DNA from: a virus
DNA: 40,048 nt
IMG/VR virus record: IMGVR_UViG_3300028599_000001
Coordinates: 1 to 40,048 of that record
Direction: 5' to 3' (one strand)
The notes beneath the pieces were generated by a model, which saw only the letters and a list, made by a program, of their open reading frames with translations, did not search any database and was not told where the DNA came from. Each line of letters starts with the position of its first letter. Position 1 is the stretch's first letter. Shown piece by piece: positions 5,636 to 29,036 of the stretch. The translations under genes and the position numbers were made by a program.

Positions 5636-6009
5636 TAATAACTCCAGATATTGGGGCGTGGCCCTGTTGTCAGATCATCCAGATGTAAAAACCGCTGATC
5701 GTAATTCCCCTTTTGATTCACGCCAATACCGGTAATGCCGTACGTGGTGGCCAGACAAATCAGGACGTGCGCTTTTTGGTGATGGACGGCAATGTCTATC
5801 GCTCTACCGGTGGTATGAGGTCCGGTCTGTCCGGTACTGGAGACTTTCGCGTTGTGCTCAGGGCATCGATAGCCCGAAGTCACGATAAAGGGAAAGCCTG
5901 CGGCCATGCGGATCTGAACAATTTTCTTCATGAAATCGTCGTCCATGAGCATTTTCCCACAACACTTGCATTTCAGCTCATCGAAGGAGAAATAAGGCCA
6001 GATCATCAT
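5635..6009 (-). CDS. Endolysin, peptidase M15 (zinc D-Ala-D-Ala carboxypeptidase-like) family. A longer 177-aa reading from ATG 6168 is also possible
   Basis: FSFDELKCKCCG, SGYRCPEHN, GRAIDI and HLD motifs. GGAGG lies just upstream of the ATGATG at 6009-6004. Confidence 0.8.
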   Translation of the reverse strand: MMIWPYFSFDELKCKCCGKMLMDDDFMKKIVQIRMAAGFPFIVTSGYRCPEHNAKVSSTGQTGPHTTGRAIDIAVHHQKAHVLICLATTYGITGIGVNQKGNYDQRFLHLDDLTTGPRPNIWSY

Positions 6010-6031
6010 GCCTCCATGAAAATAAGGATAA

Positions 6032-6202
6032 TCACCGGTTAAAGCCCCCGCCAGCGCCGTAGGCAGCCAGTACCAAAAGTAGCCCGACAAAACCTTTCCA
6101 CGCCAATCCCCAGATACCTTTTCCGACATTGACGTAGAATCGTCTGACCATGCGTTTTTCCAAGCCATCCACTATCCTTTCAATTTCTTTGTCAGTCAGC
6201 AT
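6032..6202 (-). CDS. Small membrane protein (56 aa, not in the ORF track), possible holin/antiholin. Out of frame with the long endolysin reading
   Basis: GAGGGG 8 nt upstream of ATG 6202. Translation is MLTDKEIERIVDGLEKRMVRRFYVNVGKGIWGLAWKGFVGLLLVLAAYGAGGGFNR, with one clean Gly/Ala-rich TM. Confidence 0.5.
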   Translation of the reverse strand: MLTDKEIERIVDGLEKRMVRRFYVNVGKGIWGLAWKGFVGLLLVLAAYGAGGGFNR

Positions 6203-6337
6203 GTCAATAACCCCTCTGGGTTATACGGGGTTAAAGGGGTCGTGCTGTACACTGGTTTCGCCATTGCCATGATCCTATGGTAGTGGTGGGTTGACCCGGC
6301 CTCCCTCTGCTTAAACAGGGGGAGCGCCGGCAATTCT

Positions 6338-7951
6338 CTATCTGTGTAGACCGTATAAGGTGAAGATGCCGTTAGTGATATTGCCAGCGGAATTTTTAAT
6401 ACGCACGTCTGTCACGTCAGAGGCGACATTAAAGACCCCACTATTCGTGCCGTCAGCAGTAGATGGTGTGCCAGCACGATAACCCGAATAAACAACAGAA
6501 AGTAACCCAGAAGCGGTTACACCAGAGACAAAATCTTTGTTGGAAATAGTAATTGTCCCGCTGTAGCAACTGAGTGTGGCAGTAAACGTCGCTGGATTTA
6601 ATATAATTTCTGAAGACGTTCCCGCCGGGATAACATAATCTGAAGCGCCGGTTTTGAAGGTAGATGCATCATCATCTGAATATCGTGCCCATAAAATCCC
6701 GTCCGATGACACACGGACCCGAGAATATTCGATAATGTATTTCTCATAATTACCGACAAGACTGATATCTATGTTTGTTGTTGCGGAAGAGATAATTGTC
6801 TCGGATAATACTTCTCTGCCTGTGCGTGTTGCCACAGCACCATAATTAATATGATGAATATTAGCAGACGCATCGGTCGTGACCTCATGCAGTTTTCTGT
6901 AATCGGTATAGCCTGTTGGAATATTCGCAGCAGTGGCTGATGTATCATATCCAGCATCTAATGAGCCATCGGAATCTTTTCTAATGATATGAAAATAATA
7001 TGTCGTATCTGCCGCGACAGTTCCCGTAAACATGCCACCTTGATCCGTTCCTTCTGCATGTGTTGCGTCGATTTGCTTAGTAAGCCCAGAGGTTAGTTTT
7101 AATATTTTTGTGTTGGTCGAATCCGCGCACTCTCCAACACCTAAATCAATATCATGGTCAGAGTCAGTCGTATTGATAGTGGCTATCAATCCATTGATAT
7201 ATTCTCTAGGCGCCCACCATACCATCCCTGAACTGCCGACATTTACCGAGGGAACTTGACCATCGTTGCCTTCTACCCCTGCTAAATCAACATCGGCCCC
7301 TAAATTCACATTTCCTGCAAAATCATGAGCCCCTGTCCAATTCAAGTCTGCACCAGTAGGAATAGAATGGTCTGTTGCAGCCAATAAACCGTAACTGACA
7401 GAGCTCAACCCCGAATCTAAAGCGCCTGAATCGAGAACTACCGTTATCGTAGTTAAAGAGGTATACGCAGAGACTGTAATTACACCGTAATCCGTCCCTC
7501 CTGAATCCAATAATTTCAATCGTCGGCCGACATGGAATAGACTGGTTTGATCCCCTACAAGGGAGAAAGAGGTGGTGCTAATGAATGTCGGCGTAGGACC
7601 GGCTACCCATTCGTCAATTGTCAACGTGGCATCGTTAATCCCGGCCAAATCTTCCCATGTTGAAATCGCCGATAAAGGGGGGTCTGAGTCTGTGGAGGGG
7701 GCTAGGACAAGATCCACGGTTATCCCGCCAGACTGCCACATGGGATAAGAAACCCCCCCAGCGTCAGCCGGTTCGCCCCTGGCATTCAAGATAATCGGGT
7801 TAGTGTGACTCGATACGCCCGCTTGGTCTTTGGTGAGTGTGGTTTTTGTCGATGTTCCCGCGAGATACGAGAATAATTTGGCCCCCACGTACGGATCGCC
7901 ATTAGCGTCAAGGAATTGGCGACCGGAAAAGGGATTGACATATTGAGTCAT
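6338..7951 (-). CDS. Tail fibre protein (537 aa)
   Basis: N-terminus NPFSGRQFLDANGDPYVGAKLFSYLAGTSTKTT resembles the conserved attachment domain of podophage fibres. Follows the ejection-protein genes. Confidence 0.6.
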   Translation of the reverse strand: MTQYVNPFSGRQFLDANGDPYVGAKLFSYLAGTSTKTTLTKDQAGVSSHTNPIILNARGEPADAGGVSYPMWQSGGITVDLVLAPSTDSDPPLSAISTWEDLAGINDATLTIDEWVAGPTPTFISTTSFSLVGDQTSLFHVGRRLKLLDSGGTDYGVITVSAYTSLTTITVVLDSGALDSGLSSVSYGLLAATDHSIPTGADLNWTGAHDFAGNVNLGADVDLAGVEGNDGQVPSVNVGSSGMVWWAPREYINGLIATINTTDSDHDIDLGVGECADSTNTKILKLTSGLTKQIDATHAEGTDQGGMFTGTVAADTTYYFHIIRKDSDGSLDAGYDTSATAANIPTGYTDYRKLHEVTTDASANIHHINYGAVATRTGREVLSETIISSATTNIDISLVGNYEKYIIEYSRVRVSSDGILWARYSDDDASTFKTGASDYVIPAGTSSEIILNPATFTATLSCYSGTITISNKDFVSGVTASGLLSVVYSGYRAGTPSTADGTNSGVFNVASDVTDVRIKNSAGNITNGIFTLYGLHR

Positions 7952-13863: not shown

Positions 13864-15111
13864 TTAACTCCTGATTAATGCGGAACGTTCGACAAAATCG
13901 ATTTTGCGATGATGGTCATGGCTCCATTGGGTGAGTTCATTCCCGTAAGCCGGATTATCCGCGTCGTCACAGATAATCGTTTCCGTGTGGCCAAAGTGGT
14001 CAAAAAACCCCATCCTCGAACCTATCTTGCGTGGCGGGCCGTCATTCAGTCCTAACGCAAACTGGGAAGGAATATCTTTGGGCACGACATACCATTGATC
14101 CTGAATGTCACACAATTTGACATGGAAATTGTCTACACCTGCTTTGGCCGCCAACTTCTCCAGATCCTGCGCCCAACGTGTGTCATGTTCCAAACAGTAA
14201 ACAGGCTCTGTCGATGAAGACGCTAGGACAATCGTAGTTAAACCCGATCCGGTCTCGATAATCGGACCATCGGCTTTCTTCCCTAATAGCGCGCACATCA
14301 TCAAGACATCTTCCAAAGCGCCGTAACTGTTTCCAATATAATGTCGAGCCTCGATAAACAGAGCGGGATCAAAGTCATTCTTCTTGATCTTCTCGACCAT
14401 GTAGGCCAGGGTTTCATCCCCTTGTCTGCGTAGTGCAGCAGACAAACTGTCATGGATGATGGAAGAGGCCGCGTGGCCTAACCGCAAGTCAGGGAGGACA
14501 AACAGCTTCCCGCCCTTCTTGTGCCATTTTCGACAAAAGGAAATATCCCCGCCCCATCTTGTCCCGTCTTCAAAGGTTCGCTCGAACAGGATAGGGACTT
14601 TTGACCGTCTGTCGGCCTTGTTCCAATAATGGTCAGCATCTTCGGATAAGGTTTCTAGGACATGCCGTTGGATTCGCATAAACCCCGTGGGCATACCGGC
14701 AACCTGTAATAATCCATTATCCGGCTCTGTCACGCCTGGCACCATCAGGACAGGTAGATTCTCTCTAGAACCTTCCCGACGGTAAGGATAAACTCCGCCT
14801 ACTACGGCAGCGTCCGCCTGGCACAGCTTGATTAAATCGTCTGGTTTCCAAGAGACATCGGCATCCAAGAAAACAAGATCGGTGCAGTCACTCAATAAAA
14901 ACTGTTGAACAACGTTATTCCTCGCGTCATCTACATGACAATTGCCAGCCAGTAAGAGATAGGCGGTTTGAATGCCTGTCTTTTCTAAAGCTTGTCGGGT
15001 TTTTTGTAATGAGAAAACATACCCCGGCGACGGGGTATCGTAGACAGTGGTACATAGTAATACCTTCTGTCCCTTTACTTTATCGCCGGGATCGTAAAAG
15101 AGGCTAGACAT
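13864..15111 (-). CDS. Two-domain enzyme: N-terminal GT-A glycosyltransferase-like domain and C-terminal class I SAM methyltransferase-like domain
   Basis: GT-A pattern VLLCTTVYD..DDARN..LVFLDADVSW (DxD = DAD)..GGVYPY..GGDISFC. C-terminal IETGSGLTT (motif I), CLEHD, GLNDG. Confidence 0.6.
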   Translation of the reverse strand: MSSLFYDPGDKVKGQKVLLCTTVYDTPSPGYVFSLQKTRQALEKTGIQTAYLLLAGNCHVDDARNNVVQQFLLSDCTDLVFLDADVSWKPDDLIKLCQADAAVVGGVYPYRREGSRENLPVLMVPGVTEPDNGLLQVAGMPTGFMRIQRHVLETLSEDADHYWNKADRRSKVPILFERTFEDGTRWGGDISFCRKWHKKGGKLFVLPDLRLGHAASSIIHDSLSAALRRQGDETLAYMVEKIKKNDFDPALFIEARHYIGNSYGALEDVLMMCALLGKKADGPIIETGSGLTTIVLASSSTEPVYCLEHDTRWAQDLEKLAAKAGVDNFHVKLCDIQDQWYVVPKDIPSQFALGLNDGPPRKIGSRMGFFDHFGHTETIICDDADNPAYGNELTQWSHDHHRKIDFVERSALIRS

Positions 15112-15348: not shown

Positions 15349-16551
15349 TTAGCTGGTAATACGGCAGCCCCATTGGGGACGAATCGCGGCAAACCCGTAC
15401 AATATATCGATACGAGTGAGCAATTCATCGTTACGGATGTCTGATGCCTGCCAGACGCGGATACTCAAATTGTCGTAGGTTTCAACCACACATTTAGCCG
15501 CATCGGGCATCATGGGCAGTTCAGCCGTGGCAAAGGTGTACGCGTCCTGGTGGTACATCAGATTTTGGACATACCCAGTGGAAGCCGAACCCACGAGCGT
15601 CACGACATCACCATCGGATGGCATGTGATCCACGTTCTGCTTAGCCCCCGTAGCGTAGATCGCTGGCGAAAAGGTAATATCCGCCTCGTTACCGGCAATC
15701 GTCCCCACAGCGGTAATCGTGAATTGCTGCGCATGTTGATAGGATTGTTTGGTTTCGGGGTGCACTTGCAACACATCGGCAAAGGTAAAGACAGAGCCCA
15801 CGGTTGCCGTAGTGCCTAAGGCATCCATGTGGATTGTGGTTGTTCCTTCCACCAAATTCGTGGCGCTAGGTTCATCCACAGCCCAAGCCACGTCATCACC
15901 ATTGGTCATGGTCCACGTTCTCTCATTCTCGTACCAATCGGCCATGGCGGTACGACCCATCATGCCCTCACGGTATTGAGATTTGATCTGCGTGGAGTCC
16001 TGAAACAGACCCTTTAGCCCATTCACCATCCCACCCATGGTCACGGAATCCGCCTGAATACAACGGTTCCCGTCTTTGGGAGCGAGATTTTGATTGAGCT
16101 TGGCCCTAGCCGCCCCGACTGCCGCTAAATCAGCGGGAGGAGTGCCTGGCGTGCCGGCAACGTTATACGTCAGTTTAGTACAGCCCTGGATAACATCAGA
16201 GTCAATACCAGAGACTAAAACAGCCATGGCCGGTTCAAGATGGAGTTTGGAGAAGTTTTGCAGGTCTAACGACAATTCTCGTGAATTGACCCGCATGTCC
16301 ACACCGTCTTGTGTTGCAGTGACGAGGGAGGTGTTTTGCTCCTCCATGTTTTGTACGTCCATGACTCGGGAGCCTTGACGCCTTACGTATTGCGAAGGCA
16401 GACGAATGCGCAAAGTGTCGCCGATCTTTCCATCACCTTTGTACGATTCATCAAATTGCCGATTTATCGTACCGGTGAAAGTCGCTTTTTCATGCGCAAG
16501 TCGAAGAGCCTCCTTGGTGATCATATCGATCGTTAGGAGTGAATTAGCCAT
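15349..16551 (-). CDS. Major capsid protein, P22 coat-protein family (400 aa)
   Basis: N-terminal LLTIDMITKEALRL..KIGDTLRIRLP pattern and C-terminal RIDILYGFAAIRPQ, compare P22 CRIALWYGVNATRPE. Follows the scaffold gene. Confidence 0.8.
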   Translation of the reverse strand: MANSLLTIDMITKEALRLAHEKATFTGTINRQFDESYKGDGKIGDTLRIRLPSQYVRRQGSRVMDVQNMEEQNTSLVTATQDGVDMRVNSRELSLDLQNFSKLHLEPAMAVLVSGIDSDVIQGCTKLTYNVAGTPGTPPADLAAVGAARAKLNQNLAPKDGNRCIQADSVTMGGMVNGLKGLFQDSTQIKSQYREGMMGRTAMADWYENERTWTMTNGDDVAWAVDEPSATNLVEGTTTIHMDALGTTATVGSVFTFADVLQVHPETKQSYQHAQQFTITAVGTIAGNEADITFSPAIYATGAKQNVDHMPSDGDVVTLVGSASTGYVQNLMYHQDAYTFATAELPMMPDAAKCVVETYDNLSIRVWQASDIRNDELLTRIDILYGFAAIRPQWGCRITS

Positions 16552-16617: not shown

Positions 16618-17430
16618 TTATCGCCCTAGCTGCTTGTCACGTTTTTTTACAAAATCTTCATAACTCTCTTTGCCGGTAATCTCCGTGGAGGAGGTTTTAC
16701 TCCCTCCTACGGGTTTTATCGGTGCAGGGGCAGCCGAGGCGGTGGCGGATTTCTTGGGCTTGTCCATTTTGGCCTCAAGCTTGCCAATTTCCGCAACCTG
16801 TCGAGTGGGTGAAAGCCTCGCAATTCTTGCCGCTTCCTTGTGATTATTCCCAAGGTAATAGGCGGTTTCAGTGCGGATTCGATCATCGTCAATTTCAATA
16901 AGTGCAGTGGCCATTTCATTAGTCAATGATCGTGGCGGAATACTATTGATAACATCGACAAAGTCATCGTGAGCTTCACTTCCAGACTCAAAGAACTCCT
17001 CTATCCCCTCTGGGGGTTCAGATGCTTTTTGGGACGGTTGTTTTTGGGTCTGGGCGTCTTCACGATTTGCTTCCGCTAGTTTTTCTCGATAATCGTACTT
17101 AGCATCGATGTATTCGTCTAGCGTGTCGAAGTCGTCAGCTTTAGGACGAACAATTGCCGCTTTATTTTGGGCAGTAGATTGTTTCTCCACTAACCCAATA
17201 AGCTGGTCAATCTTCTTGTCCTGTTCTTTCAGCCTTCGGTTTTGCTCTCGCAATTTATACGACAGGTTTGCTTTGTCGGAATCGCTCTTTTTTGGCGGTT
17301 CCTCAACCTTCTCGGTATCCGGTTTTTCCTCTTTCGAGTCCTCATCGGTGGGAGGGTCTTTAATTTCTTTAGCTTCTTCGATAGCTTGCGCATCACCTTG
17401 CGGTGTTTCATCTAGTACTTCGTCTGCCAT
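16618..17430 (-). CDS. Scaffolding protein (270 aa, highly acidic/charged, helical)
   Basis: GGAGG 5 nt upstream of ATG 17430. Composition, and position directly upstream of the coat gene. Confidence 0.65.
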   Translation of the reverse strand: MADEVLDETPQGDAQAIEEAKEIKDPPTDEDSKEEKPDTEKVEEPPKKSDSDKANLSYKLREQNRRLKEQDKKIDQLIGLVEKQSTAQNKAAIVRPKADDFDTLDEYIDAKYDYREKLAEANREDAQTQKQPSQKASEPPEGIEEFFESGSEAHDDFVDVINSIPPRSLTNEMATALIEIDDDRIRTETAYYLGNNHKEAARIARLSPTRQVAEIGKLEAKMDKPKKSATASAAPAPIKPVGGSKTSSTEITGKESYEDFVKKRDKQLGR

Positions 17431-17466
17431 TATGGCCTCCAAACATCGGGTAGGGTTTCCCCATCT

Positions 17467-17892
17467 CTAATCGAGTAACATCATCATTATGATAAGGTTG
17501 TCTTCCTCGTCATTTAATGCCGTTAAGATCGCTTGTTGTTCTGCGATCTCAATCAGCAATTCGGTCAATACTTGTTGGCGTAATAGGTAGGCCAGTTCTT
17601 CATCTAAACTGGGTTCTATCTCTGACTTAACGTCTTTTTTAAGCTCTTGGGCCTTTTCCTGTTTGGCCTCTATTATTTGTTCGGCCTCTTCTTTGGCCTG
17701 TAATAATTCTCTGTATTCTTCCTCTAATCTTTTGAGTCGGCGTTGTTCAGAGAGGGTGCCGGGGATATAAACGTGTTCTTCATAACCACCTGAGGGTCTT
17801 TCTTCAACTGATACCCCACAAGGACCAATACCCTGTAACGCTAGACAGCGATGCCCGTAACCTACCCCTTGCAGGGCTAGCGCTCGGCTCAT
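17467..17892 (-). CDS. Hypothetical coiled-coil protein (141 aa) with an N-terminal LALQG(V/I)G duplication
   Basis: ATGA overlap with the upstream 413-aa gene. Charged heptad-like centre. Confidence 0.45.
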   Translation of the reverse strand: MSRALALQGVGYGHRCLALQGIGPCGVSVEERPSGGYEEHVYIPGTLSEQRRLKRLEEEYRELLQAKEEAEQIIEAKQEKAQELKKDVKSEIEPSLDEELAYLLRQQVLTELLIEIAEQQAILTALNDEEDNLIIMMMLLD

Positions 17893-19130
17893 CCCGTTCT
17901 CGTTACAGTCGTAACATTCCCAACAGTATTGACTGTCTGTGTAATGGTGCCAGCGGTACGTGTGTTCGCGTCGTCATCGACGACAAGCGAAGTACCTGTT
18001 TTCAACCCATGTAAAGACCTGACTTCATCGGTTCTTGTAAAAAGCGTATCATCATCAAGATTATCCAATACACCATTATTGACATGCTCGATGCCGCCAT
18101 ATAATCGCGCATCGCCACCGGTGCACGTTGCATCAAAGGTTATTTTCCCGCCAGCGCCAGCCATTTCGACCAAGCCTCCCGTGACCATGTTTTTGATTAA
18201 TATTCGACCCCCTAACCAGCCTCTGATAGACAGTTTTTTGGCAATGCTATTAAAATCTATCGTGACTTCCTCGTTGGTTTGCTCAACGGCCGTATAAGAT
18301 TGCTTAATGATGAGATCGTTATTCATTACAATAGGGCCGAATAAGATACAATTATCAAACTGCCCATTAGCATCGGTTACCGAATTGACGATAGAACCGA
18401 TAACTTGATTCGTGTCTGTCATTTGGCCAAAAATATGTGCATCAATAAACCTGCACTCTGTGACATCACAGGTTGGCTGTAGGAAAATAAACGAATTGTG
18501 AACACTGTCACCATAGAAGCTATTACCGACAGAATGATCGCCAACCACAAATATGGTGGACATCACGTAGATATTTTTAAAACCTTTTTGAGCCAACAAG
18601 TCGAGTACGTTTTGCTCTGTCTCAACAGGAAATTCACGCACGCCATAAGGATATTCAATTGAATCTGTCCCTGCTGCTGGATCCCAAGAAACGCCAAGAC
18701 CGTCCCTGCCAATAAAGGTTGTGGCTTGCAGTTGCTCCAGATTTGCCACTGTTGAATCCACCAAGTTAGATACGGTGGCTTCTAAAAATACTGAATAAGT
18801 CCCGCCTGTGGGCTTAATATAGGGACTTGTGCCATCGACAGAATAAAGATTTCCGGTGACAATTAACCTTTGGTCAGCGTCATAAGGTTCAATCTTCCAA
18901 TCAGATCGTAAAAAATAAGTGTCGCCCAAAAATCCTGTGGGCGTTGGATTGCCGCCAAGCGCGCTGAAAGGTGGTCTGACCTTCCGTAAAGCAGGGGTGC
19001 TTAGCCAGTCCTCTTTCTGATCACCGTAGAGATCAACCTGAACATCCAGATTGACGATACCGTCCCCGTCCGGTGCCTCGGTCAATTTAATAATCCGTGT
19101 CGTGGCGTTGAATGTCGCTTTAGCACCCAT
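17889..19130 (-). CDS. Beta-rich virion-associated protein candidate (413 aa). Its N-terminal domain is related to that of the 614-aa protein
   Basis: N-terminus ..LYGDQKEDWLSTPALRKVRPPF..GDTYFLRSDWKIEP aligns by eye with ..SFMKEEYLNGTDAATLRRFRFPW..GSFIWVNGWAPAD in 19540-21384. Confidence 0.45.
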   Translation of the reverse strand: MGAKATFNATTRIIKLTEAPDGDGIVNLDVQVDLYGDQKEDWLSTPALRKVRPPFSALGGNPTPTGFLGDTYFLRSDWKIEPYDADQRLIVTGNLYSVDGTSPYIKPTGGTYSVFLEATVSNLVDSTVANLEQLQATTFIGRDGLGVSWDPAAGTDSIEYPYGVREFPVETEQNVLDLLAQKGFKNIYVMSTIFVVGDHSVGNSFYGDSVHNSFIFLQPTCDVTECRFIDAHIFGQMTDTNQVIGSIVNSVTDANGQFDNCILFGPIVMNNDLIIKQSYTAVEQTNEEVTIDFNSIAKKLSIRGWLGGRILIKNMVTGGLVEMAGAGGKITFDATCTGGDARLYGGIEHVNNGVLDNLDDDTLFTRTDEVRSLHGLKTGTSLVVDDDANTRTAGTITQTVNTVGNVTTVTRTG

Positions 19131-19553
19131 TTATTTCTTCCGTTGTTTCTCGATCTTTCTCCTGACATGAATATCGGGATAGGTCACTTTCCCACCGGGT
19201 TCGACTTGTGGGAATTTCGCCCTAACCACGTCTTGCCATTCCTGTAATAACGACTTGTCACGGTGCACGCATTCATAGGGTTCAGTCTGTGAAATGTCCC
19301 AGATAATCCCAAAAAAACGCCAACCAGCAAACAGAGGGTCGCTCTCATACTTCTTGATGAAGTCTGGATCGACCTCGGAGGCCGGTCCTCCGTTGGCTTC
19401 CGTGGCCAATCGATACAGTTTGTATCGGATCTCTTTGCGTTCCCGTCGCATTAACATTCCCTCTGGCGACAAAGCCTTTACAGTGCGGTGGATTTCTTTG
19501 GGCGACAGTTCGTCCAATTCCAGGTCGTCGATCTTTTTATCAAGCGTTGACAT
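19131..19553 (-). CDS. Hypothetical protein (140 aa, basic C-terminus), possible assembly factor for the upstream 614-aa protein
   Basis: 14-nt overlap with the upstream gene. Non-structural-looking composition. Confidence 0.4.
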   Translation of the reverse strand: MSTLDKKIDDLELDELSPKEIHRTVKALSPEGMLMRRERKEIRYKLYRLATEANGGPASEVDPDFIKKYESDPLFAGWRFFGIIWDISQTEPYECVHRDKSLLQEWQDVVRAKFPQVEPGGKVTYPDIHVRRKIEKQRKK

Positions 19554-21384
19554 AGTTCAGCTCATCATTGGGGTTCACGGCGATATTCTGTCCCACGGCT
19601 GCAGTGATGGTATGCGTGGCTTCGACCCACTCCGCCCCGTCTAACGCTTGAGCGACCACCGTTATCGGGGCGTCCGTGTTCGGTGTACGTCCGCCTTGGT
19701 TGTTATTGGTGTAGTCAAAGTCCCAAGCAATTGTCGCGGCGGTAACTTGTCCCGAGATGTCCGTTGCAGAATTGTCATCCACAATGATCGCCCCAGGAGA
19801 CTCAAAGGGATTCTCCAACACTGTAATAGACGCGGTCTCGGTGACTAAAGTCGTGCCTTCCTGATGGGTGATGTTCATCGTGTTGGCACCCGTGGTATTC
19901 ACTAAGTAAAGTCCATTGTTTCCTGCATTGGTCACAAATGCAGACAAGTCTATGTAATCCGTAGCGACAATATGATCCAGGTCTGTCCCCGCCCAAGTCA
20001 GATCCCCTGTCGCTCCTGCACTCAAGGTTAAGGTGTAGCTGCCGGTCGTGGTCGTGATATAGGTATGGTAGGCCGTGTAGTAGGTTTCAGCGTCCAGTTC
20101 ATCCACGATGTTAGAAGCAAAGTTCAAATTCCCAGCCGCGACAAACGGGAAGGAGACTGGTGTTGCACCCGGTGCGACGGGAATGCCGTCCGTGTCCACG
20201 CCCCCCGAGTCCACAACGATAGGTTGGTGCTGGATGACGTTGGTGGAGTTGGCATCGAATCCCCTAATGACTACCCCGGGCTCCATGATCATCGTATCGC
20301 CGGTATACGCATCCAATAAATAAGCGACTTCACCATTCACTGTACCGAAACCGCGCTGGTTCACTGAGGTCGTGTCGTTGGCGTTAATATCGCCGGTTTG
20401 ACGCAGTGACCACATATTGAACTCGTGGGCCTCTTCATCCGTGCCTGTCGCTGCGGTCACAACTCGATTGAATGCGTAGTAGGTTGACCCTATCAGCTCT
20501 TCACCGTTGTAAGATTCAAGGACAGCAGTACCACCATTTGCGGTATAGTCTGCCGCGCCCGAGGCGTCCACCGTTCCACCCGTCACTACGAAGAACCACC
20601 GTCCCGCACCGTCTTGTAACACTTCGTCAGCCACGTAAGTCGTGGCCGCCGCTGTGTCGAAGGTCGTACCTTTAAGGTAGTTCACCTTCATGTTGGTGTA
20701 AGGTGTCGTAGTCGAAACGGTGACATCGGATGCGGTGACTTTCGCATCATTACCGTTCAACAGTGGGAAGGAATAGGCCTGGTAGGTAATCGCTGCAATA
20801 TCGTACTCGGATAACAGATTGTATTCGGCGTAGAGTTTCCCTTGTTCTCTCAAAAAGGCCTTGAAGTATGTCGTGGCGCCGGTAATGTCAACGTTCTCAT
20901 TCATTTGACCCGTTTTATCAAAATCTGTCGTGGTCGCGGTAAACCCGGAGGCTTGGACGTAATACGCTAGATCCGAGGCGTCATCGTCCGTTTGACTCAA
21001 AGAGATCATGCAGGCGTTTTCATTACTGGAGACTTGTTCTAAAAAGCCCGCATCCCTCATTAGGTCGCGGGTCTGCGCATCAGCAGGCGCCCAGCCATTC
21101 ACCCATATAAAGGAACCTTCAAAGATCATCTTCCAGGGGAATCTGAAACGTCTGAGGGTGGCGGCATCCGTACCGTTTAAGTACTCTTCTTTCATGAAAG
21201 AATACCCGGCACGTCCTGTCACACCGGAAGTCTTACCGGGTGCGGTGTCGTCTAAGTTCCCCGCGACACGAAGTTGAACGGTTTTAGGGCCAGTGAGGAT
21301 AACCATTTCCTCGGTCGTCGCACCGGCTGCGCTGGTTGCATGGACATAAACCGATAAACTGTCTGGATCTGTGATTTTAGCCAT
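19540..21384 (-). CDS. Large Thr/Ala/Gly/Asn-rich virion-associated protein candidate (614 aa)
   Basis: Composition, shared N-terminal domain with the 413-aa protein, C-terminus ..ELNYVNA similar to ..DPNYVNP of the 601-aa protein. Confidence 0.45.
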   Translation of the reverse strand: MAKITDPDSLSVYVHATSAAGATTEEMVILTGPKTVQLRVAGNLDDTAPGKTSGVTGRAGYSFMKEEYLNGTDAATLRRFRFPWKMIFEGSFIWVNGWAPADAQTRDLMRDAGFLEQVSSNENACMISLSQTDDDASDLAYYVQASGFTATTTDFDKTGQMNENVDITGATTYFKAFLREQGKLYAEYNLLSEYDIAAITYQAYSFPLLNGNDAKVTASDVTVSTTTPYTNMKVNYLKGTTFDTAAATTYVADEVLQDGAGRWFFVVTGGTVDASGAADYTANGGTAVLESYNGEELIGSTYYAFNRVVTAATGTDEEAHEFNMWSLRQTGDINANDTTSVNQRGFGTVNGEVAYLLDAYTGDTMIMEPGVVIRGFDANSTNVIQHQPIVVDSGGVDTDGIPVAPGATPVSFPFVAAGNLNFASNIVDELDAETYYTAYHTYITTTTGSYTLTLSAGATGDLTWAGTDLDHIVATDYIDLSAFVTNAGNNGLYLVNTTGANTMNITHQEGTTLVTETASITVLENPFESPGAIIVDDNSATDISGQVTAATIAWDFDYTNNNQGGRTPNTDAPITVVAQALDGAEWVEATHTITAAVGQNIAVNPNDELNYVNA

Positions 21385-21394
21385 TTACATAACC

Positions 21395-23200
21395 TTATGG
21401 ATTAACATAATTGGGATCATCCACCGCTTGCACCTTAATAGAGCTGTCGGCATTGGGCAGCAGTAAATCATAAATGTCGGATAAGTTAGGATCATAGGCC
21501 AAGGCGTTAAACAGAATATCGACCGTCTCCCCACCACCATGCGTATAGGTCGTACTCCCTGACGTCACTGTACCGTGTTGCAATTCCGTTCGAGTAGAAC
21601 TGTTCACGATAGTGACGTTTGTGGGATTAGGAATATTGGTCAGTGTTAGGACAAAGGACGCGACGAACAAATGATCCGCATTTGTACCCGTATTGTTACA
21701 CGTCGAAGGATCGGCGCCGTTGGTTTTATTGATAACCAAGACTTGAGTGGCGGTTCCCGTCCCACTTCCAACACCGGTAGCCACGAACTTCGTACCAATG
21801 TTGTTATCTGCTGAGCCTATTAGTGTGAAGTCTGTCGTACCAACTGTTAATATCTTATATCCCTCATTCACCACGAATGACCCAGCGGTAATGGTTGAGG
21901 CATTCCCCGAGTTCAAAACGTCATACGTGTTGCCGGAGAAAGTCAGGTTGTTATAGGTCGATGCTAAAGGTGAGGCGTGTTCAATCCCCGCCCCGGTTGT
22001 GTTGGCGATAAACTTGGAATTTTGTATATCAATGTTCGTGTTCCACAGTAACGCGGAAGACGTGTCAGAAGTCTCCGCGAATACCGCATTTCTGATTACT
22101 TGCGCGCCGACAGGATCGTATTGCGCACAGCCTGCAATACTAATCCCCAGACCTTTATGATCTGAATCATTACCGCTATTTAGAACGCCAGTAAGATTAA
22201 CCAGATTTGTACCGTACAACGTCGAGACACTGGCTGCGTTATTCCCTCCATAGAGATCCAGGTAATAATCCAGATCAGCCGCCCCTCGGATATTTGATCC
22301 ACTACGGCCCGCGTCCGTTCCGACGATAACCCCATCACTGAAAGTCGTGGTATAGGTGGTGTGGTCTTCAATATTGATCCCTGCAATCCCTACTGGCATG
22401 GTCGAGGCCCACACACTGCCCGTCCAGAACTCCGATTCACCCGCCTGGACTACCCTTCCACTATCCGTAAAGCTTACGACAGCCGTTTGACTCGCCGCGT
22501 CACCGATATTCAATCCGCCGTATTGATAATAAATGCCTTCCCGCTGTTCAAATACCGGCCAACCTCTGGTGGAGTAATCGGTAACGTAATCGACGACTTC
22601 TTTAATTCCAGTGGTGCTTGTTCCTGTGACTCTTAACCCCGATCCGACAATGATCATGTCAGTGAAAATACTGTCAGCACGCGCGGAAGTAGAACAGTCA
22701 ATCCATATCCCTAATGTACGAACGCTCGCAATGATGCTCGACTGTGTACCGTTGCTTCGTGTAGGGGTTTTGTTGACATCTAACGCAAAGACTTTCCAGC
22801 GCCCGTTCCAGCCGTTCGTATCGTCATTACCCGCTATGAGATAATCAAGGTAGTTCGTGGTGCCAGGAGACGATGACGAAACGCGTAAACAAAGACCGTA
22901 ATTGGCTTTGGTGTCCAAAGTCCCTAGAGCGGTCATAGATACAAGGAAATAAATCAGTTCGCCTTCTTCGGTCCCACCACTGGAGAAATCCAGCTCATTT
23001 CCCGATCCAATGTCGTACTGATGAAAACCTGACTTAGAGGCGTACTTCCCGCCGATGGATACGCCATTGATCAAATACACGTCATTCGAGACAGAAATTG
23101 TGCCTAACCCCACCTCCGACCACGTCCCACCAGCGGTGTCGCTTATCGCATCGGCATTCGCTATGACTCCTTTCCCTTCGATAGCGATCGTCAGGGCCAT
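21395..23200 (-). CDS. Large beta-helix-like protein (601 aa), tailspike/depolymerase-like, carrying a roughly 45-aa inserted domain shared with the 328-aa protein
   Basis: Repetitive N/G/S/T-rich strands (..NLVNLTGVLNSGN..NTNIDIQNSKFIANTTGAG..). Domain AGSFVVNEGYKILTVGTTDFTLIGSADNNIGTKFVATGVGSGTGTA. Confidence 0.45.
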   Translation of the reverse strand: MALTIAIEGKGVIANADAISDTAGGTWSEVGLGTISVSNDVYLINGVSIGGKYASKSGFHQYDIGSGNELDFSSGGTEEGELIYFLVSMTALGTLDTKANYGLCLRVSSSSPGTTNYLDYLIAGNDDTNGWNGRWKVFALDVNKTPTRSNGTQSSIIASVRTLGIWIDCSTSARADSIFTDMIIVGSGLRVTGTSTTGIKEVVDYVTDYSTRGWPVFEQREGIYYQYGGLNIGDAASQTAVVSFTDSGRVVQAGESEFWTGSVWASTMPVGIAGINIEDHTTYTTTFSDGVIVGTDAGRSGSNIRGAADLDYYLDLYGGNNAASVSTLYGTNLVNLTGVLNSGNDSDHKGLGISIAGCAQYDPVGAQVIRNAVFAETSDTSSALLWNTNIDIQNSKFIANTTGAGIEHASPLASTYNNLTFSGNTYDVLNSGNASTITAGSFVVNEGYKILTVGTTDFTLIGSADNNIGTKFVATGVGSGTGTATQVLVINKTNGADPSTCNNTGTNADHLFVASFVLTLTNIPNPTNVTIVNSSTRTELQHGTVTSGSTTYTHGGGETVDILFNALAYDPNLSDIYDLLLPNADSSIKVQAVDDPNYVNP

Positions 23201-24187
23201 TTACACGTCCCAGCCGTCTCTGGCGTTACTCACAGCGGTTTCGGCAGCCGTATCGATCTCGAACACTTCCCAGGTATCCGAATCAATATTGAAATGGAAT
23301 ACCGCATCACCGAAGTTTTTACTCACTGATTCAAATTTCTCCGCTACCAGTTGAAATTCACCGGGGACCAATCCTTGCTCGTTGTAGGTATTACCTGAAA
23401 ACGCCGTGATGCAGTTCGCCCAGCGCCTCGCTGTTGTGCTGATTTTCGCCGCCCGACAGTCTCCGGTCGCCGTTAAAATCTCATTGGTTTCGTGGATCGT
23501 GACATTGGTCGCCGCCACGCCTCCGGTCGTACCATCACGCTGGCCAGTAATATGCCCTACCTGAATCGTCCCCGAGGCGTCTTCCACAGGCCCGTTCGAG
23601 CCAAAGGCACAACAATGAATCGTATCGGCTTCGGTGGTGGTTAAGGCGATACCCGTGGTGGGATTGGTCGTTGAAGCTTGAGCATTCCCCTTTCCCACGT
23701 CTCTGGGGCCGGCTTTTCCGTAATCACTGGCAAAACACGCCCTAGCGCTCAATGAGGAGGCCCAGGTATAGGTTAATGTCCGGCTGTTGGTTTTTTCTAT
23801 AATCGCTCGGTATTGGGCAGTGGTAATGCCTGAGTTCAATTCCGAGGTCCGTGTATTCGCGACCAATCGTAATGACCGGCTACCGAACTTTACGGACTGG
23901 GGATGCTCCATTGCTGTGCCAGTCCCTGTTCCCACACCGGTCGCGGTGAACTCTGTCCCTGCAAGGCTGTCCGCCGCACCGATCAAGGTGAAGTTTGTCG
24001 TCCCAGGGACCAATATGGTGTATTCCTCGCCCACCACAAAAGACCCTGCTATCACAGAGCTCTTATAGGTAACAGCGGAAATAAGCAGTGAAAAGGCCAC
24101 GTCCATCGAAAACGCTGAGGGACTTAATGTCGTCCCGGAGACTTTCGTTTGTGCCGTGCCTTTAGCAATAGGAGCAATAAGTGCCAT
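23201..24187 (-). CDS. Beta-rich protein (328 aa) carrying the same roughly 45-aa domain
   Basis: AGSFVVGEEYTILVPGTTNFTLIGAADSLAGTEFTATGVGTGTGTA. First gene after portal. Start abuts the next gene. Confidence 0.45.
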   Translation of the reverse strand: MALIAPIAKGTAQTKVSGTTLSPSAFSMDVAFSLLISAVTYKSSVIAGSFVVGEEYTILVPGTTNFTLIGAADSLAGTEFTATGVGTGTGTAMEHPQSVKFGSRSLRLVANTRTSELNSGITTAQYRAIIEKTNSRTLTYTWASSLSARACFASDYGKAGPRDVGKGNAQASTTNPTTGIALTTTEADTIHCCAFGSNGPVEDASGTIQVGHITGQRDGTTGGVAATNVTIHETNEILTATGDCRAAKISTTARRWANCITAFSGNTYNEQGLVPGEFQLVAEKFESVSKNFGDAVFHFNIDSDTWEVFEIDTAAETAVSNARDGWDV

Positions 24188-24234: not shown

Positions 24235-26538
24235 TTAGCTAGATTGGGTTTCTACAGATTGCCCGGTGATTTGTGTTCCATCAGGTTTCGTGAAGGCAAA
24301 CTCTTTCTTCACAGGCCCTTGCTTGGCATCGACATTAACGACAATCGGATTAGCGCCCAATTGTTGAATATTGGCGTTCATGGCTTCCAGAAGCGTATTG
24401 ATTTGTTCCAATTGCTCGTTTTTCTCGCCCTCTTCCTCCTCTGTGTCATCGTCAGACTCGGAGAGGGCATTGATCTCTTCTTTGATCTTGTTCGCTTGGA
24501 CTTCAAGTTTTGCGGCAGCGAGGAGGGCTTGAGCGTTGGCTACCTTGATGTCTGAGGCGAGTAACTGCCGCTGATGTTCGATGTCTTTCAACTGAGATTC
24601 ATTTGTAATGCGGTCTGCATTGACCTCCGTCGCCTGGGTTTCGACTTCTTTCTCCGCATCCATCAAGTCTTGACCACGCTGTTCCAGCATCATGGCCTGC
24701 TCTTCGATATGTTTCATCATGGCTTGGATTTTGGGATCGACTTCGTCCCCCTTTTCGTCCAAAGCCTGGATTTCAGGCGGCGCCATAGCCTTTAAGCGTT
24801 TCGCTATCTCTTCCGAATACGGCCAATCCGTCGCCTTAAAGAACAAGTCTCCGATGATCGGGGTGAGATCAGGCGACCCTTGCATGACCTGAGACATCAT
24901 TTCCGCGCCTTCTTGTCGTTTGGCGGTGTAACTCGGGCCTGTAGCGACTGTCACATCGTACTTACCGACATTCAGGTTATAAATAGACCCGATTTCCTTT
25001 CCTTGTTGGTCTACATCAGGGGTGATAGCTTGCTCTTGATTGGGGTTCAATTTCACCATGTCCGGTTCGCCATCTTCCCCGAGGATTCGAGCGACTCGCT
25101 CCGTGTCATAGACCTTGGGAATCCATTGGATCAAGATCCGGCCAGTGTGTTGGATGGATCGAGCGAGATTATCCGGGAAATGATAATTCCCGATCATGCC
25201 CTGGATTTTCTGCTCTTGTAACGCAATTCCAGACTTTTCTTGTGACTTCGCTCCGACTGAAGGACCGTACATCCCGTAAGAGCCTTCAACACCGTGTTCG
25301 GTATATTGGATGACCTGATGCCAGCCTGGCGACATGCCGGCAGGCGTGGTCCGAATAGGGGGGTTGATGGGATTATTCGCATCATCAAACCCGTTGTATT
25401 TCAATACCCCGATATTCTGGCGATTGGCTAATTTGTATTCATTTTCAAAGCCTTTAATGGATTGGGCTTCGGCCAACCACGGAGCCTTTGGAGCAAGGGC
25501 AACGGTCTCGATAAACCCCGCTATCGAGTAGTTATGCAATCGTTGTGCGTCCATCGCCGCCTCGATCGCACCCGAGAGACGGCACGTGCCGTCCGGCATG
25601 AAGAGCTCATTCCCCACCACTTTTACGACAGGAATGTACGTTCCTAGCATGTCCGCTTTTTCCAATATCTCCTCATTGGTCAATTTGTACCATTTGACGG
25701 TCTTGACCTGGGTTGTGCGAGATTGGACGGGTTCGGGCGGAGGAATGTCTTCAGCCATTTCTGGTGGGATGGTGGCGTATAAGGCTTGGGCTTGTTTTAA
25801 ATCTTCGTCTGTTAAAACAGCCCCATCTTGCATTTGATGGATGGTCGTGGGCTCCTCATCGACCTTCATGTACTCCGCAACACGGACTGTGTCCTTTTCC
25901 GACCAATCGCTGGCATTGTCGAAATCAACCTCTTTTGCCTTAGGGTATTCCCGTTTAAAGTCGTCTCGCTCCATGTCCTCCCATATAACGGCTTCTTTAC
26001 AGTCAGCGCCGTCAGGGTCTGTATGGGGTCCCAAAGCCACGGAGAAGCGGTTAGGGACGCGTACAATGCGAATGGCTTGATCGAAGGACATATCGTCCTC
26101 GTATTCCGTGAGAATGCGCCAATACCCAAAACCCCCATCGATTGCCTGCTCACCGGCATAGGTGTAGGCCTCAATCGCGTTAGAGGCGTCTTCAATGTGG
26201 CGAATGATCCCGGTGAAGGTCTCAGCGACTTTGGGATCGGCATCGTCATCGACGGGCCTGACCTTGATTGCAGCACGGTTCTGTCGCTCTTCATTGACGA
26301 TCTGCCGGGTGTATTGGTTGGTTTTATCGATCACCGGACACGGTCGGGGGCCACCGTCCTGGTTCTTGCCTTCCCGGTCTTCCTTGATGGCTTGGGGCCA
26401 CTGTTCTAACGCACGGAAGCGAATCGCTTCTTCAGCGCGGCTGATATTGTCGTATTCGCGCTCTCGAAAGCGTTTTAGGCAGTCTCGGGCGTCCTTAATA
26501 ATCCGTTCTGTCTTGGTCAGCCCCTTGTCTTCGTCCAC
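24235..26538 (-). CDS. Portal protein, P22-portal-like, with a long C-terminal coiled-coil barrel. Start uncertain (GTG 26538 or TTG 26595)
   Basis: Motifs ..RFRALEQWPQAIKEDREGKNQDGGPRPCPVIDKTNQYTRQIVNEERQNRAAIKVRPVD... Heptad-rich acidic C-terminal roughly 150 aa. GTG overlaps the upstream stop (TAGTG). Confidence 0.8.
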   Translation of the reverse strand: MDEDKGLTKTERIIKDARDCLKRFREREYDNISRAEEAIRFRALEQWPQAIKEDREGKNQDGGPRPCPVIDKTNQYTRQIVNEERQNRAAIKVRPVDDDADPKVAETFTGIIRHIEDASNAIEAYTYAGEQAIDGGFGYWRILTEYEDDMSFDQAIRIVRVPNRFSVALGPHTDPDGADCKEAVIWEDMERDDFKREYPKAKEVDFDNASDWSEKDTVRVAEYMKVDEEPTTIHQMQDGAVLTDEDLKQAQALYATIPPEMAEDIPPPEPVQSRTTQVKTVKWYKLTNEEILEKADMLGTYIPVVKVVGNELFMPDGTCRLSGAIEAAMDAQRLHNYSIAGFIETVALAPKAPWLAEAQSIKGFENEYKLANRQNIGVLKYNGFDDANNPINPPIRTTPAGMSPGWHQVIQYTEHGVEGSYGMYGPSVGAKSQEKSGIALQEQKIQGMIGNYHFPDNLARSIQHTGRILIQWIPKVYDTERVARILGEDGEPDMVKLNPNQEQAITPDVDQQGKEIGSIYNLNVGKYDVTVATGPSYTAKRQEGAEMMSQVMQGSPDLTPIIGDLFFKATDWPYSEEIAKRLKAMAPPEIQALDEKGDEVDPKIQAMMKHIEEQAMMLEQRGQDLMDAEKEVETQATEVNADRITNESQLKDIEHQRQLLASDIKVANAQALLAAAKLEVQANKIKEEINALSESDDDTEEEEGEKNEQLEQINTLLEAMNANIQQLGANPIVVNVDAKQGPVKKEFAFTKPDGTQITGQSVETQSS

Positions 26539-26831
26539 TATGAGAAACGACCCAAAGCAATGACTGTTACACCGGCTGCTGTGGTAATCGCCCAAGGGCC
26601 GGTTTGGGATGTCATATTGAGCTCAAGCGGGTACGTACCAATAGCGGTGTTTGCCGCCATCAGAATAATACTGGTGCTCCCGTCAATCAAAGTGACTGTG
26701 CTTGATGCGGCCGTACCTACTACGATGGTTAGGCTGTGTAGGTAGTCGTGTTTAGCCCCCGCCTTTGTTGCTCCGGTTAAGTCAAAGTTGATCTCTGAGG
26801 CACCAACCGTCACATAGCTATACCCTTCCAT
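26538..26831 (-). CDS. Small beta-rich protein (97 aa), tandem paralog B
   Basis: MEGYSYVTVGAS..GATKAGAKHDYLH..GPWAITT..VIALGRFS. ATG overlaps the stop of paralog A (TAATG). Confidence 0.6.
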   Translation of the reverse strand: MEGYSYVTVGASEINFDLTGATKAGAKHDYLHSLTIVVGTAASSTVTLIDGSTSIILMAANTAIGTYPLELNMTSQTGPWAITTAAGVTVIALGRFS

Positions 26832-27306: not shown

Positions 27307-27509
27307 GACAGCAATTTGCCCATGGAATATACAAAGACAGTGAAGCTCAGAGACATCATGAATATTAAAAACATCTCATACGCCCATCTTGTCAAGGACC
27401 ACCAAATCCGCTTCCATAAAGGAATATGCATTTGAGTCAAAGAGAACTGCACTTCTGGGCGGATAATCTTACAGCCATAGTTCATCTTGATTTCGCTCAT
27501 CCCATCCAC
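27303..27509 (-). CDS. Small membrane protein (68 aa, GTG start)
   Basis: C-terminal TM MFLIFMMSLSFTVFVYSM. Overlaps the terL end by 13 nt. Confidence 0.45.
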   Translation of the reverse strand: MDGMSEIKMNYGCKIIRPEVQFSLTQMHIPLWKRIWWSLTRWAYEMFLIFMMSLSFTVFVYSMGKLLS

Positions 27510-28780
27510 GCTCCAGGTCCGGTGTAGTGAGTTCTCATGGATTCTTCCTTCTTCTCAGGTTTGGCCTCGGCACTGATCGCCACGGCGAAGGCTCTGAAGG
27601 CATCTGCACCGTGCGTCCAGACATTGGCTTGGGGCTTCTTGCCTCTCAGGCCGGTGTCCTCATCGATCTCATAGACGTAGCGGTTCAAACACTGACGGAG
27701 ATCGGAGGTCTTTTGGTCGTCAAACCACAGCTGCCCGAAGATGGTCTTAGCGGCGTTGATGTCGTTGCCGATCTTAGGGGTTCTAGGGAGGACTCTGACC
27801 GTTCGTCCTAGCTTGCTCATGATCAATTCTACCGTTCGTCCGCCAGCGGCGATGTTGGTGGACTTCGCATCGTGCGGTAGCCAGTCCGTGCCCCAGACGT
27901 AGCGTTTCTTCTGGAGCTCTGCAATATACCAATTGACTGAGTGTTCGGCGTCTTCCAGGTAATCAATGAGGTGATAAGCGTTATTCACAGCTTGCGCCAT
28001 GATTATCGCGGTTCTTCCAGTGAGAGAGTTCCAACCCAAGTCCCAAAAGGTGTGGACCGGTCGTGTAGGGTCATAGGGAATAGTGGTGATACGGTTTTCG
28101 AGCTTGGCTTGTCTAAGCTCTTTAGCGAATATCGCACCATCCAAGACCTGTCTGCAATGGCCTTCCCATACATGGAGATACGCATCGGGATCCCTCTCCT
28201 TGAGTTCAAGCATTTCCTGCATCAGGACATCAGGAAACCACGGGTTATCCTGCCAGTTCATCTTGACGACTATCGAGTCTTTGGGTGGATTCAAGACCAG
28301 TCTGCGGTAGGTTTCGTCCTCCTCCAGCTCAGGGTTGAACGTGGCCCATATTTCTGACCCTTCCTTGCGAATGGTCGGCACCAGGATTTCCCACGACTTC
28401 TTGGAAATAACCTGAGCCTCTTCCAACCAGGCCACGTCAGCCCCTTCATAGGACTTCAGTTCAGTGATGTTGTGCTTGAGGCCGGCGAAACCGAAGGCTG
28501 TCCCGTTTTTCCCTTGAATGCTGTTCGCCTGGATAGTGTAGTAATAACCGAGATTTAAGGCTTGGATCTGATCCGATAAGAGCTGATGGACCGAATCCTT
28601 GATCGATCGCTGTAATTCTCGTGTACAGAGTATTCTTGTGGGCTCTTGTATGCCTCGGATTAACAGAGCACGGGCAAATGACCATGACTTTGTACTGCCG
28701 CGTCCTCCGTAGGCTGCCTTGTAACGAGACTGCTGGCCTAGGAGGAAATCAAGTTTTGCTGGCAGCTTCGCTCTTAACAT
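27497..28780 (-). CDS. terL: Terminase large subunit (Terminase_3/PBSX-type)
   Basis: Walker A YGGRGSTKSWS, Walker B-like DVAWLEEAQ, nuclease-domain-like C-terminus. First ATG at 28780 (the track start 28786 is TTG). Confidence 0.85.
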   Translation of the reverse strand: MLRAKLPAKLDFLLGQQSRYKAAYGGRGSTKSWSFARALLIRGIQEPTRILCTRELQRSIKDSVHQLLSDQIQALNLGYYYTIQANSIQGKNGTAFGFAGLKHNITELKSYEGADVAWLEEAQVISKKSWEILVPTIRKEGSEIWATFNPELEEDETYRRLVLNPPKDSIVVKMNWQDNPWFPDVLMQEMLELKERDPDAYLHVWEGHCRQVLDGAIFAKELRQAKLENRITTIPYDPTRPVHTFWDLGWNSLTGRTAIIMAQAVNNAYHLIDYLEDAEHSVNWYIAELQKKRYVWGTDWLPHDAKSTNIAAGGRTVELIMSKLGRTVRVLPRTPKIGNDINAAKTIFGQLWFDDQKTSDLRQCLNRYVYEIDEDTGLRGKKPQANVWTHGADAFRAFAVAISAEAKPEKKEESMRTHYTGPGAWMG

Positions 28781-29036
28781 ACTCAACAGTCATAGTTAGC
28801 GCGAGCTCGCCATCGTCTCCAGTGCCTTCAATAGCTTGGACGGGTTTGCCGTCTAACCGATCACCGATCTCTTTCAACGAGGCTAGGTCACCTTCCGCCC
28901 CTTTCTCCACGAGCTTCTTGGCTAATTTATTAAGCGTCTTCTGGTCTTTATCAACAACCGCTCTGCGAATAGCGTCAGCCCATATCTTGCCCTTCTTTGC
29001 ATTCTGGTTGCCAGGTTGTCCGCCGCCTTTATCCAC
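28749..29036 (-). CDS. Putative small terminase / DNA-recognition subunit (95 aa, GTG start)
   Basis: N-terminal GGGQPGNQNAKKG motif seen in many TerS-type proteins. Directly upstream of terL and overlapping it. Confidence 0.4.
   Translation of the reverse strand: MDKGGGQPGNQNAKKGKIWADAIRRAVVDKDQKTLNKLAKKLVEKGAEGDLASLKEIGDRLDGKPVQAIEGTGDDGELALTMTVEYVKSEAASKT

Follow-up and report, generated by a model that had tools for sequence, protein, structure and literature searches.

A Syn5-type gp53-gp54-gp55 cassette between the portal and scaffold genes of a P22-like podophage: a probable head-appendage module

The DNA analyzed here, the complete 40,048-nucleotide stretch of IMG/VR virus record IMGVR_UViG_3300028599_000001 (positions 1 to 40,048; hereafter the window), carries a block of large genes encoding beta-rich proteins between the portal and scaffold genes of a P22-like head module. 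Our analysis indicates that the segment 17889-24187 is probably a horizontally mobile head-appendage cassette of the type represented by gp53, gp54 and gp55 of the marine cyanophage Syn5, specifying a glycan-binding horn or fiber and lodged at the variable portal-scaffold junction of a temperate-type podophage. The homology of this cassette to the Syn5 module is secure. That its products form an appendage on the head of this particular phage is what we infer from the linkage to head genes, the presence of a separate tail gene set and the domain logic of the two ends of the central protein, p614.

The original prediction, which was made from the letters of the window, placed six genes of 328, 601, 614, 140, 413 and 141 aa at 17467-24187. 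Six minus-strand open reading frames (ORFs) of these lengths are indeed found at exactly these coordinates, and PHROG matches bear out the P22-type portal on one side and the scaffold and coat genes on the other. The proteins are named below by their lengths:

23201..24187, minus strand: p328, an accessory protein (hidden Markov model (HMM) domain mapping)
21395..23200, minus strand: p601, with a C-terminal domain corresponding to that of Syn5 gp54 and an N-terminal 440 aa that constitute a separate conserved family
19540..21384, minus strand: p614, the Syn5 gp53 homolog and conserved core of the cassette (hhalign)
19131..19553, minus strand: p140, a small protein and candidate assembly factor, the first 14 nt of whose gene overlap p614
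17889..19130, minus strand: p413, with a gp55-like N-terminal domain and a variable C-terminal extension (domain mapping)
17467..17892, minus strand: p141, acidic and coiled-coil, with a hydrophobic tail at the C-terminus; its gene precedes the scaffold and probably belongs to the backbone

Homology of the cassette to the Syn5 gp53-gp54-gp55 module

None of the six proteins matched Pfam, PHROGs or the sequences of the PDB in either single-sequence or profile searches, and megablast found nothing matching the region among 50,697 phage records. A tblastn search with p614 against deposited phages recovered gene 53 of Syn5, together with its relative, Synechococcus phage S-TIP28, as well as Maribacter phage Panino, the virus Rctr197k and one uncultured phage. 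The alignment of the p614 family with Syn5 gp53 extends from the first to the last residue and includes a common C-terminal peptide (hhalign 100%, E 2.8e-58, 434 columns), and the same relationship is recovered by phmmer (E 8e-32). The C-terminal ~85-110 residues of p601 match the C-terminus of gp54 (hhalign 90%, E 1.5e-6; tblastn E 0.02), while residues 4-124 of p413 align with residues 7-123 of gp55 (hhalign 97.7%, E 2e-12; phmmer of gp55 versus p413, E 1e-10). The Syn5 record lists genes 53 and 54 side by side, each as 'structural protein', followed by gp55. The original prediction had preferred additional receptor-binding or depolymerase-like tail proteins, with head fibers or decoration proteins as an alternative; the homology to gp53, gp54 and gp55, along with the adjacency to head genes in several independent lineages described below, shifts the balance to the latter.

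Domain architecture of the cassette proteins

The domains identified within the individual proteins are as follows:

23927..24061, minus strand: p328 residues 43-87, a copy of a 45-aa module, 'AGSFVVGEEYTILVPGTTNFTLIGAADSLAGTEFTATGVG' (64% identity to p601 residues 435-479, E 1e-9)
22616..23200, minus strand: p601 residues 1-195, a jelly-roll resembling carbohydrate-binding modules (CBMs) (Foldseek)
21881..22573, minus strand: p601 residues ~210-440, a right-handed parallel beta-helix (DSSP strand periodicity, Foldseek)
21764..21898, minus strand: p601 residues 435-479, where the 45-aa module recurs as an insertion that most p601 homologs lack
21398..21754, minus strand: p601 residues 483-601, a C-terminal beta-sandwich 'anchor' that ends in DDPNYVNP and matches the C-terminus of Syn5 gp54
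21124..21312, minus strand: p614 residues 25-87, an N-terminal motif common to the gp55/p413 N-terminal domain (hhalign)
19543..19806, minus strand: p614 residues 527-614, a C-terminal domain with the terminal sequence DELNYVNA and a probable relationship to that of p601
18753..19130, minus strand: p413 residues 1-126, the gp55-like domain (hhalign versus Syn5 gp55)

The p614 protein has at least 263 homologs, which are uniformly about 610 aa long with conservation along the entire chain, and an exhaustive profile search expands the gp53/p614 family to 871 clusters at 50% identity. Its AlphaFold2 model is multidomain and confident (predicted local distance difference test (pLDDT) 93.9), and the best match among PDB structures reaches a template modeling (TM) score of 0.13; Foldseek thus recovered no solved analog of this fold from the PDB and nothing solid from BFVD. 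Its low-TM, partial matches to an endosialidase, the N-terminal barrel of the F1-ATPase and a baseplate J-like protein were rejected as a basis for function. The N-terminal domain that the original prediction saw as common to p614 and p413 is not detected by BLASTP but emerges in profile comparison, in which residues 3-58 of p413 align with residues 25-87 of p614 (hhalign 92.7%, E 4.3e-7); the HMM of the p413 N-terminus also matches Syn5 gp53. At the opposite end, the C-terminal ~80-residue domains of p614 and p601 are probably homologous, judging from their alignment (hhalign 69%, E 4.5e-5, 74 columns). Both proteins end in a D/E-x-N-Y-x-N-P peptide that is frequent in both families and had been overlooked in the original prediction. 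Hence, p614 has an N-terminal motif in common with p413 and a C-terminal domain and terminal peptide in common with p601.

The model of p601 (pLDDT 90.6) upholds the predicted parallel beta-helix and places a second, CBM-like jelly-roll domain N-terminal to it; the earlier view that the large proteins are of the beta type was thus largely right. Foldseek searches with the jelly-roll retrieved CBM22, CBM30, Endo-A domains and the turret of HFTV1 (8qpg) with probabilities of ~1.0 and E-values of 1e-3 to 1e-2. The beta-helix gave weak matches to the alpha-1,3-glucanase Agl-KA (5zru, E 1e-4) and to AlgG (4ozz); the similarity to enzymes is low (E 1e-4, TM 0.18), and a catalytic site is not assignable. 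Three residues within the beta-helix region, D279, D289 and R299, are invariant. Given the combination of a beta-helix with a carbohydrate-binding-like jelly-roll, a glycan-binding role for p601 stays plausible. More than 404 unannotated metagenomic homologs of p601 were found, while tblastn against the 50,697 phage records gave no match. The C-terminal domain of p601 occurs on proteins of 291-2313 aa that differ in their N-terminal parts, which suggests that these proteins dock through a constant C-terminal element and vary at the N-terminus, the reverse of the arrangement in usual tail fibers.

The p413 protein has few homologs, which have the first ~126 residues in common and range from 229 to 701 aa in length. 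A 633-aa protein of another locus (L006 13639-15540) has two tandem copies of the p413 C-terminal region, for which profile searches of the PDB gave weak matches to pentapeptide repeats; together these observations suggest that the extension is a repetitive beta-solenoid.

The N-terminal ~150 aa of p328 (residues ~8-148) are paralogous to residues ~400-538 of p601 according to HMM mapping, and its C-terminal domain is seen only in the window and in two other loci, L004 and L014. A p328 homolog with 84% identity lies immediately upstream of the p601 homolog in L004. No match to p328 was found in Pfam, PHROGs or, by tblastn, the 50,697 phage GenBank records. Within the paralogous region p328 and p601 share a Gly/Thr-rich module of 45 aa with the pattern GxxYxIxxxGTTxFTLIGAxDxxxGTxFxATGVGxGTG, which the original prediction had also overlooked. 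It is additionally present in L004 and L007, and the region was detected in only 7 loci; AlphaFold assigns low pLDDT to the corresponding residues 444-478 of p601.

Phyletic distribution, gene orders and genomic position of the cassette

The p614 alignment retrieved 74 loci from IMG/VR, and a scan of genome contigs yielded 30 loci from metagenome-assembled genomes binned to many phyla. Domain HMMs were then run over 88 sequences, in which p614 was detected in 82, the C-terminal domain of p601 in 73, the gp55-type domain in 70, the N-terminal region of p601 in 45 and p140 in 39. The p614 family, the p601-type C-terminal domain and the p413-type N-terminal domain travel together in ~80 loci, always as adjacent, co-oriented genes of same-strand structural operons, and genes of all three types (gp53, gp54 and gp55) are adjacent in at least 70. 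Two gene orders recur. In the window-type order a protein with the p601-type C-terminus is followed by p614, p140 and a gp55-domain protein, whereas the Syn5-type order runs from p614 through the protein with the p601-type C-terminus to the gp55-domain protein and has no p140.

The cassette adjoins head genes in at least 7 loci. In the window the order is portal, cassette, scaffold and coat; in L076 and L085 the portal is followed by the cassette; in L029 and L071 the cassette precedes scaffold-size ORFs and a coat gene; and in L050 and L056 it follows the coat gene. A location between the portal and head genes thus holds for L076 and L085, and probably for L029 and L071 as well. Genes of the gp53 family are also observed inside large or closed chromosomes, namely L115 (CP066686.1, Candidatus Woesebacteria, closed, 1017658-1030944), L097 and L098, which suggests that prophages with the cassette reside in very different hosts, including candidate-phyla-radiation and other uncultured bacteria.

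The distribution separates the two small proteins, each of which had been proposed to be the chaperone-like partner of the large protein that precedes it. The pairing of p614 with p140 is conserved: p140 is confined to loci of the window type, where its gene invariably separates the p614-like from the p413-like gene (39 loci), and its homologs in L007, L008 and L009 are 43-59% identical. It has no Syn5 homolog, and scans of Pfam and PHROGs were empty. The pairing of p413 with p141 does not hold, as a p141 homolog was found beside no other p413-like gene; the candidate role of p141 as a chaperone of p413 was rejected on this ground. Domain HMMs recovered no p141 homolog in any cassette-bearing locus among the 88 sequences, neither small protein matches a known chaperone family in Pfam or PHROGs, and BLASTP finds the two unrelated to each other. 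ORFs in the position of p141 occur in L010 (5210-5611), L001 (11956-12453) and L076 (11874-12296). Their BLAST similarity to p141 is not significant, and yet all four proteins possess a GGY motif, an acidic helix and an 'EEDxLLxxLL' tail. Thus, p141 probably belongs to the phage backbone rather than to the cassette, and such small proteins may constitute an unrecognized conserved head-assembly factor. With p141 taken as a backbone gene, the insertion proper comprises five genes and ~6.3 kb (17889-24187).

The portal-scaffold junction and its genomic setting

The first 127 bases of the window are identical to bases 39922-40048, indicating that it represents a circularly closed, complete phage genome of 39,921 bp. 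The principal genes outside the block are:

27497-28786: large terminase (PHROGs)
24235..26595, minus strand: P22-type portal (phrog_156, E 5e-107), the upstream boundary of the insertion site
16618..17442, minus strand: scaffold (phrog_8865, E 3e-30), the downstream boundary
15349..16551, minus strand: coat (phrog_283)
6338-7951, minus strand: g537, a likely tail fiber or spike

Beyond the coat gene lie genes for a gp4-like adaptor, a gp10-like 'head closure' protein, an ejection protein, g537, g528 and an endolysin, with g537 and g528 encoding two large unannotated proteins downstream of the ejection genes. Within the block, p328 and p601, as well as p140 and p413, are separated by 0-nt gaps, and p601 and p614 by 10 nt; p614 and p140 overlap by 14 nt and p413 and p141 by 4 nt. 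Since none of these gaps or overlaps exceeds 14 nt, the six ORFs form one operon with the head genes, and the conserved homologs found elsewhere for five of the six imply that these are real genes. A foreign origin on grounds of composition was considered and rejected, the GC content of the block (0.44-0.54) showing no clear anomaly relative to ~0.48 overall.

The location of the block had been called unusual, which is half right. Relatives differ in what they carry between portal and scaffold, and the junction is thus a recurrent cargo hotspot of this clade; moreover, the cassette sits at portal or head genes in other phages too. The closest relative, L010 (portal 60% and coat 69% identical), has here (3637-5611) a 526-aa phrog_1645 'virion structural protein' and a 133-aa ORF. 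In DSL-LC05 (L002 10032-14819) the junction holds nine genes, including those for a Dps-like regulator and a tailspike-like protein, and in MW202573 (L001 11956-12453) a single 165-aa ORF. In Vibrio phage 1.211.A it is empty. Over its N-terminal ~100 residues, g537 has 36% identity to a fiber-like gene within the DSL-LC05 portal-scaffold block (L002 11674-11940), which hints that tail receptor-binding genes shift between the tail site and this junction.

Two further observations concern the flanking genes. The longest portal ORF begins with TTG, and the portal profile match covers residues 32-715, leaving out the first ~30; the real start is probably further downstream. Directly downstream of the coat gene (13864-15111, minus strand) is a 415-aa protein with a weak match to GT2 glycosyltransferases (Pfam E 0.03) and a match to phrog_1574. 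The same post-coat position is occupied in L001 by a methyltransferase and an 'A197-like transferase', and in L010 by a homolog of the 415-aa protein, which is possibly a virion-protein modification enzyme.

A potential head-borne adhesion organelle

The horn of Syn5 is reported to consist of two virion proteins, gp53 and gp54. Raytcheva et al. (2014) reportedly found both to be minor horn proteins, and antibodies to them reportedly did not neutralize infection. The horn stands on the vertex opposite the tail (PMC10575957; PMC4102127). The Syn5 capsid additionally bears knob-like proteins, to which Gipson et al. assigned gp55 and gp58 from a 4.7-Å map using secondary-structure arguments, with gp55 at two sites per hexon (PMC4102127).

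By analogy, p614 in the role of gp53 would, after capsid assembly, provide the conserved shaft or base of a capsid-attached fiber. The conserved C-terminal beta-sandwich of p601 might dock to p614, so that the jelly-roll and beta-helix at the N-terminal side of p601 would form an exposed tip that could bind, and possibly cleave, surface polysaccharide. Such an arrangement would be reversed in polarity relative to ordinary tail fibers, with the conserved anchor at the C-terminus and the variable part at the N-terminus. The p413 protein could attach through its gp55-like domain with its variable C-terminal extension projecting outwards, p140 might serve as a non-virion assembly factor and p328 as an accessory paralog of the junction region of p601. 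Adhesion to surface polysaccharide is suggested by the glycan-binding type of the p601 folds, and the appendage may let the head attach reversibly to surface glycans, whether of the host or not, alongside the receptor-binding proteins of the tail (encoded at 4049-7951).

Several observations weigh against this proposal of a Syn5-like head appendage. The assignment of the Syn5 horn proteins reportedly rests on immunogold work. A fiber on the vertex opposite the tail is known for Syn5 only. The N-terminal 440 aa of p601 are unrelated to the N-terminus of gp54, the match being limited to the C-terminal ~110 aa, and Syn5 has no counterpart of p140 or p328. Tail-like genes precede the cassette in L005, in L009 it closes the structural operon, and in L007 it neighbors an endolysin; the end of the structural operon or the vicinity of lysis genes is the usual place of tail fibers. 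In Foldseek searches p614 weakly resembles an endosialidase tailspike. The isolate Panino bears the cassette and is described as an ordinary podovirus, with no mention of a horn or appendage. Finally, the assignment of gp55 to the knobs is indirect, coming from a 4.7-Å map without an atomic model (PMC4102127).

These points bear most directly on the main alternative, to which we assign a rather low but appreciable likelihood, namely that the proteins are mounted on the tail, with p614 as the conserved adaptor, interchangeable p601 and p413 subunits serving in receptor binding or as depolymerases and the position among the head genes incidental. The beta-helix and CBM-like domain of p601, the weak likeness of p614 to the phi92 and K1F endosialidases and the combination of conserved docking domains with strongly variable partners, as in modular receptor-binding proteins, would all be compatible with such a device, as would the gene contexts of L005, L007 and L009 and the tailspike-like genes at the DSL-LC05 junction. 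However, gp53 and gp54 of Syn5, the only homologs studied experimentally, are reported to sit on the horn and not on the tail. The tailspike position of P22-like phages, downstream of the ejection genes, is already taken in the window by g537 and g528, and the C-terminal anchor of the proteins of the p601 type is unlike that of known tail fibers and spikes. In addition, the six proteins resemble neither a head-binding domain of the P22 type nor any tail family in PHROGs, and they have no sequence match in Pfam or the PDB.

It is also conceivable, but improbable, that the products form not one polar horn but many-copy decoration fibers at hexons or pentons, in the style of the phi29 head fiber or T4 Hoc. 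The correspondence of the p413 N-terminus to gp55, with its two sites per hexon (PMC4102127), the presence of the same motif at the N-terminus of p614 and the similarity of the p601 jelly-roll to the capsid turret of Haloferax virus HFTV1 would fit such a distribution over the capsid. The reported status of gp53 and gp54 as minor horn proteins in Syn5 and the indirect nature of the gp55 assignment speak against it, and covering the whole capsid with three large proteins would presumably burden a 40-kb phage heavily. No sequence or family homology to described decoration families was found in Pfam or PHROGs, the sole resemblance being the generic jelly-roll match to the HFTV1 turret.

The original prediction also raised a non-structural system carried in the late operon; such a moron, for instance for defense, anti-defense or surface modification, draws on the lack of family annotation for any of the proteins and on the location at a cargo hotspot, but it is very improbable in light of the annotation of the Syn5 homologs as virion structural proteins, the invariable location of the block within same-strand structural operons and the extended beta-rich multidomain folds.

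Returning to the head-appendage cassette, horn and knob proteins are, as a kind of structure, already known from Syn5. Our search of the literature revealed no other 'horned' phages, no newer horn structures and no horn homologs beyond close cyanophage relatives. Relative to this literature the architecture, gene order and P22-like context of the window cassette appear to be new, as does the recognition of the horn genes as a large mobile family with confident models and a core fold that has no solved analog. The function of the Syn5 horn has been a standing question since 2007. Its genes can now be tied to a family of 871 clusters and to a three-family cassette that crosses unrelated phage backbones, which turns the question of what the horn is for into testable ones on glycan binding, head-first adhesion and the choice of a unique vertex, and provides an annotation for hundreds of large 'hypothetical' phage proteins. 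More tentatively, the Syn5 horn, hitherto regarded as peculiar to one cyanophage, might be the known representative of a large, mobile class of adhesion organelles carried on phage heads, each with a gp53-type core of unseen fold, shared N- and C-terminal docking elements and exchangeable glycan-binding or glycan-cleaving heads, in hundreds of tailed-phage lineages including P22-like, T7-like, jumbo and candidate-phyla-radiation-associated phages. If this were true, many podophages would possess a second, capsid-side device for host contact.

Comparison with known systems

The closest parallel is Syn5 itself (Autographiviridae, Voetvirus). In both phages the three genes are adjacent, co-oriented and in the late operon, and the C-terminal ERNYxNP peptide of gp53 is matched in p614. 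The differences are nevertheless considerable. The order 53-54-55 of Syn5 is permuted relative to 601-614-140-413 in the window; p614 has two extra segments (residues ~245-290 and ~445-525) that are not found in gp53; p413 has a ~290-aa extension that the 156-aa gp55 does not; and gp58 has no counterpart in the window. The backbones differ as well, being T7-like in Syn5 and P22-like in the window, where the cassette is placed between portal and scaffold. The same three families in the Syn5-type order are found in Panino (CDS0100-0097), Rctr197k (genes 178-180), S-TIP28 and Caudoviricetes sp. MW202577, whose proteins are annotated as hypothetical or structural and are 26-37% identical to those of the window.

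The tailspike-like genes of DSL-LC05, and the tailspikes of P22-like phages in general, are comparable in being beta-helical, glycan-directed proteins, and in the case of DSL-LC05 also in the insertion site; however, the DSL-LC05 genes show no sequence similarity to the window cassette, and the only link is the N-terminal segment of g537, which lies outside the cassette. In terms of function, the proposed appendage is reminiscent of gp8.5 of phi29, Hoc of T4 and the turret of HFTV1, which are all capsid-borne accessories that bind glycans or surfaces. The resemblance of the HFTV1 turret (chain 8qpg_TA) to the p601 jelly-roll (E 1.5e-3) is one of common fold, with no sequence homology.

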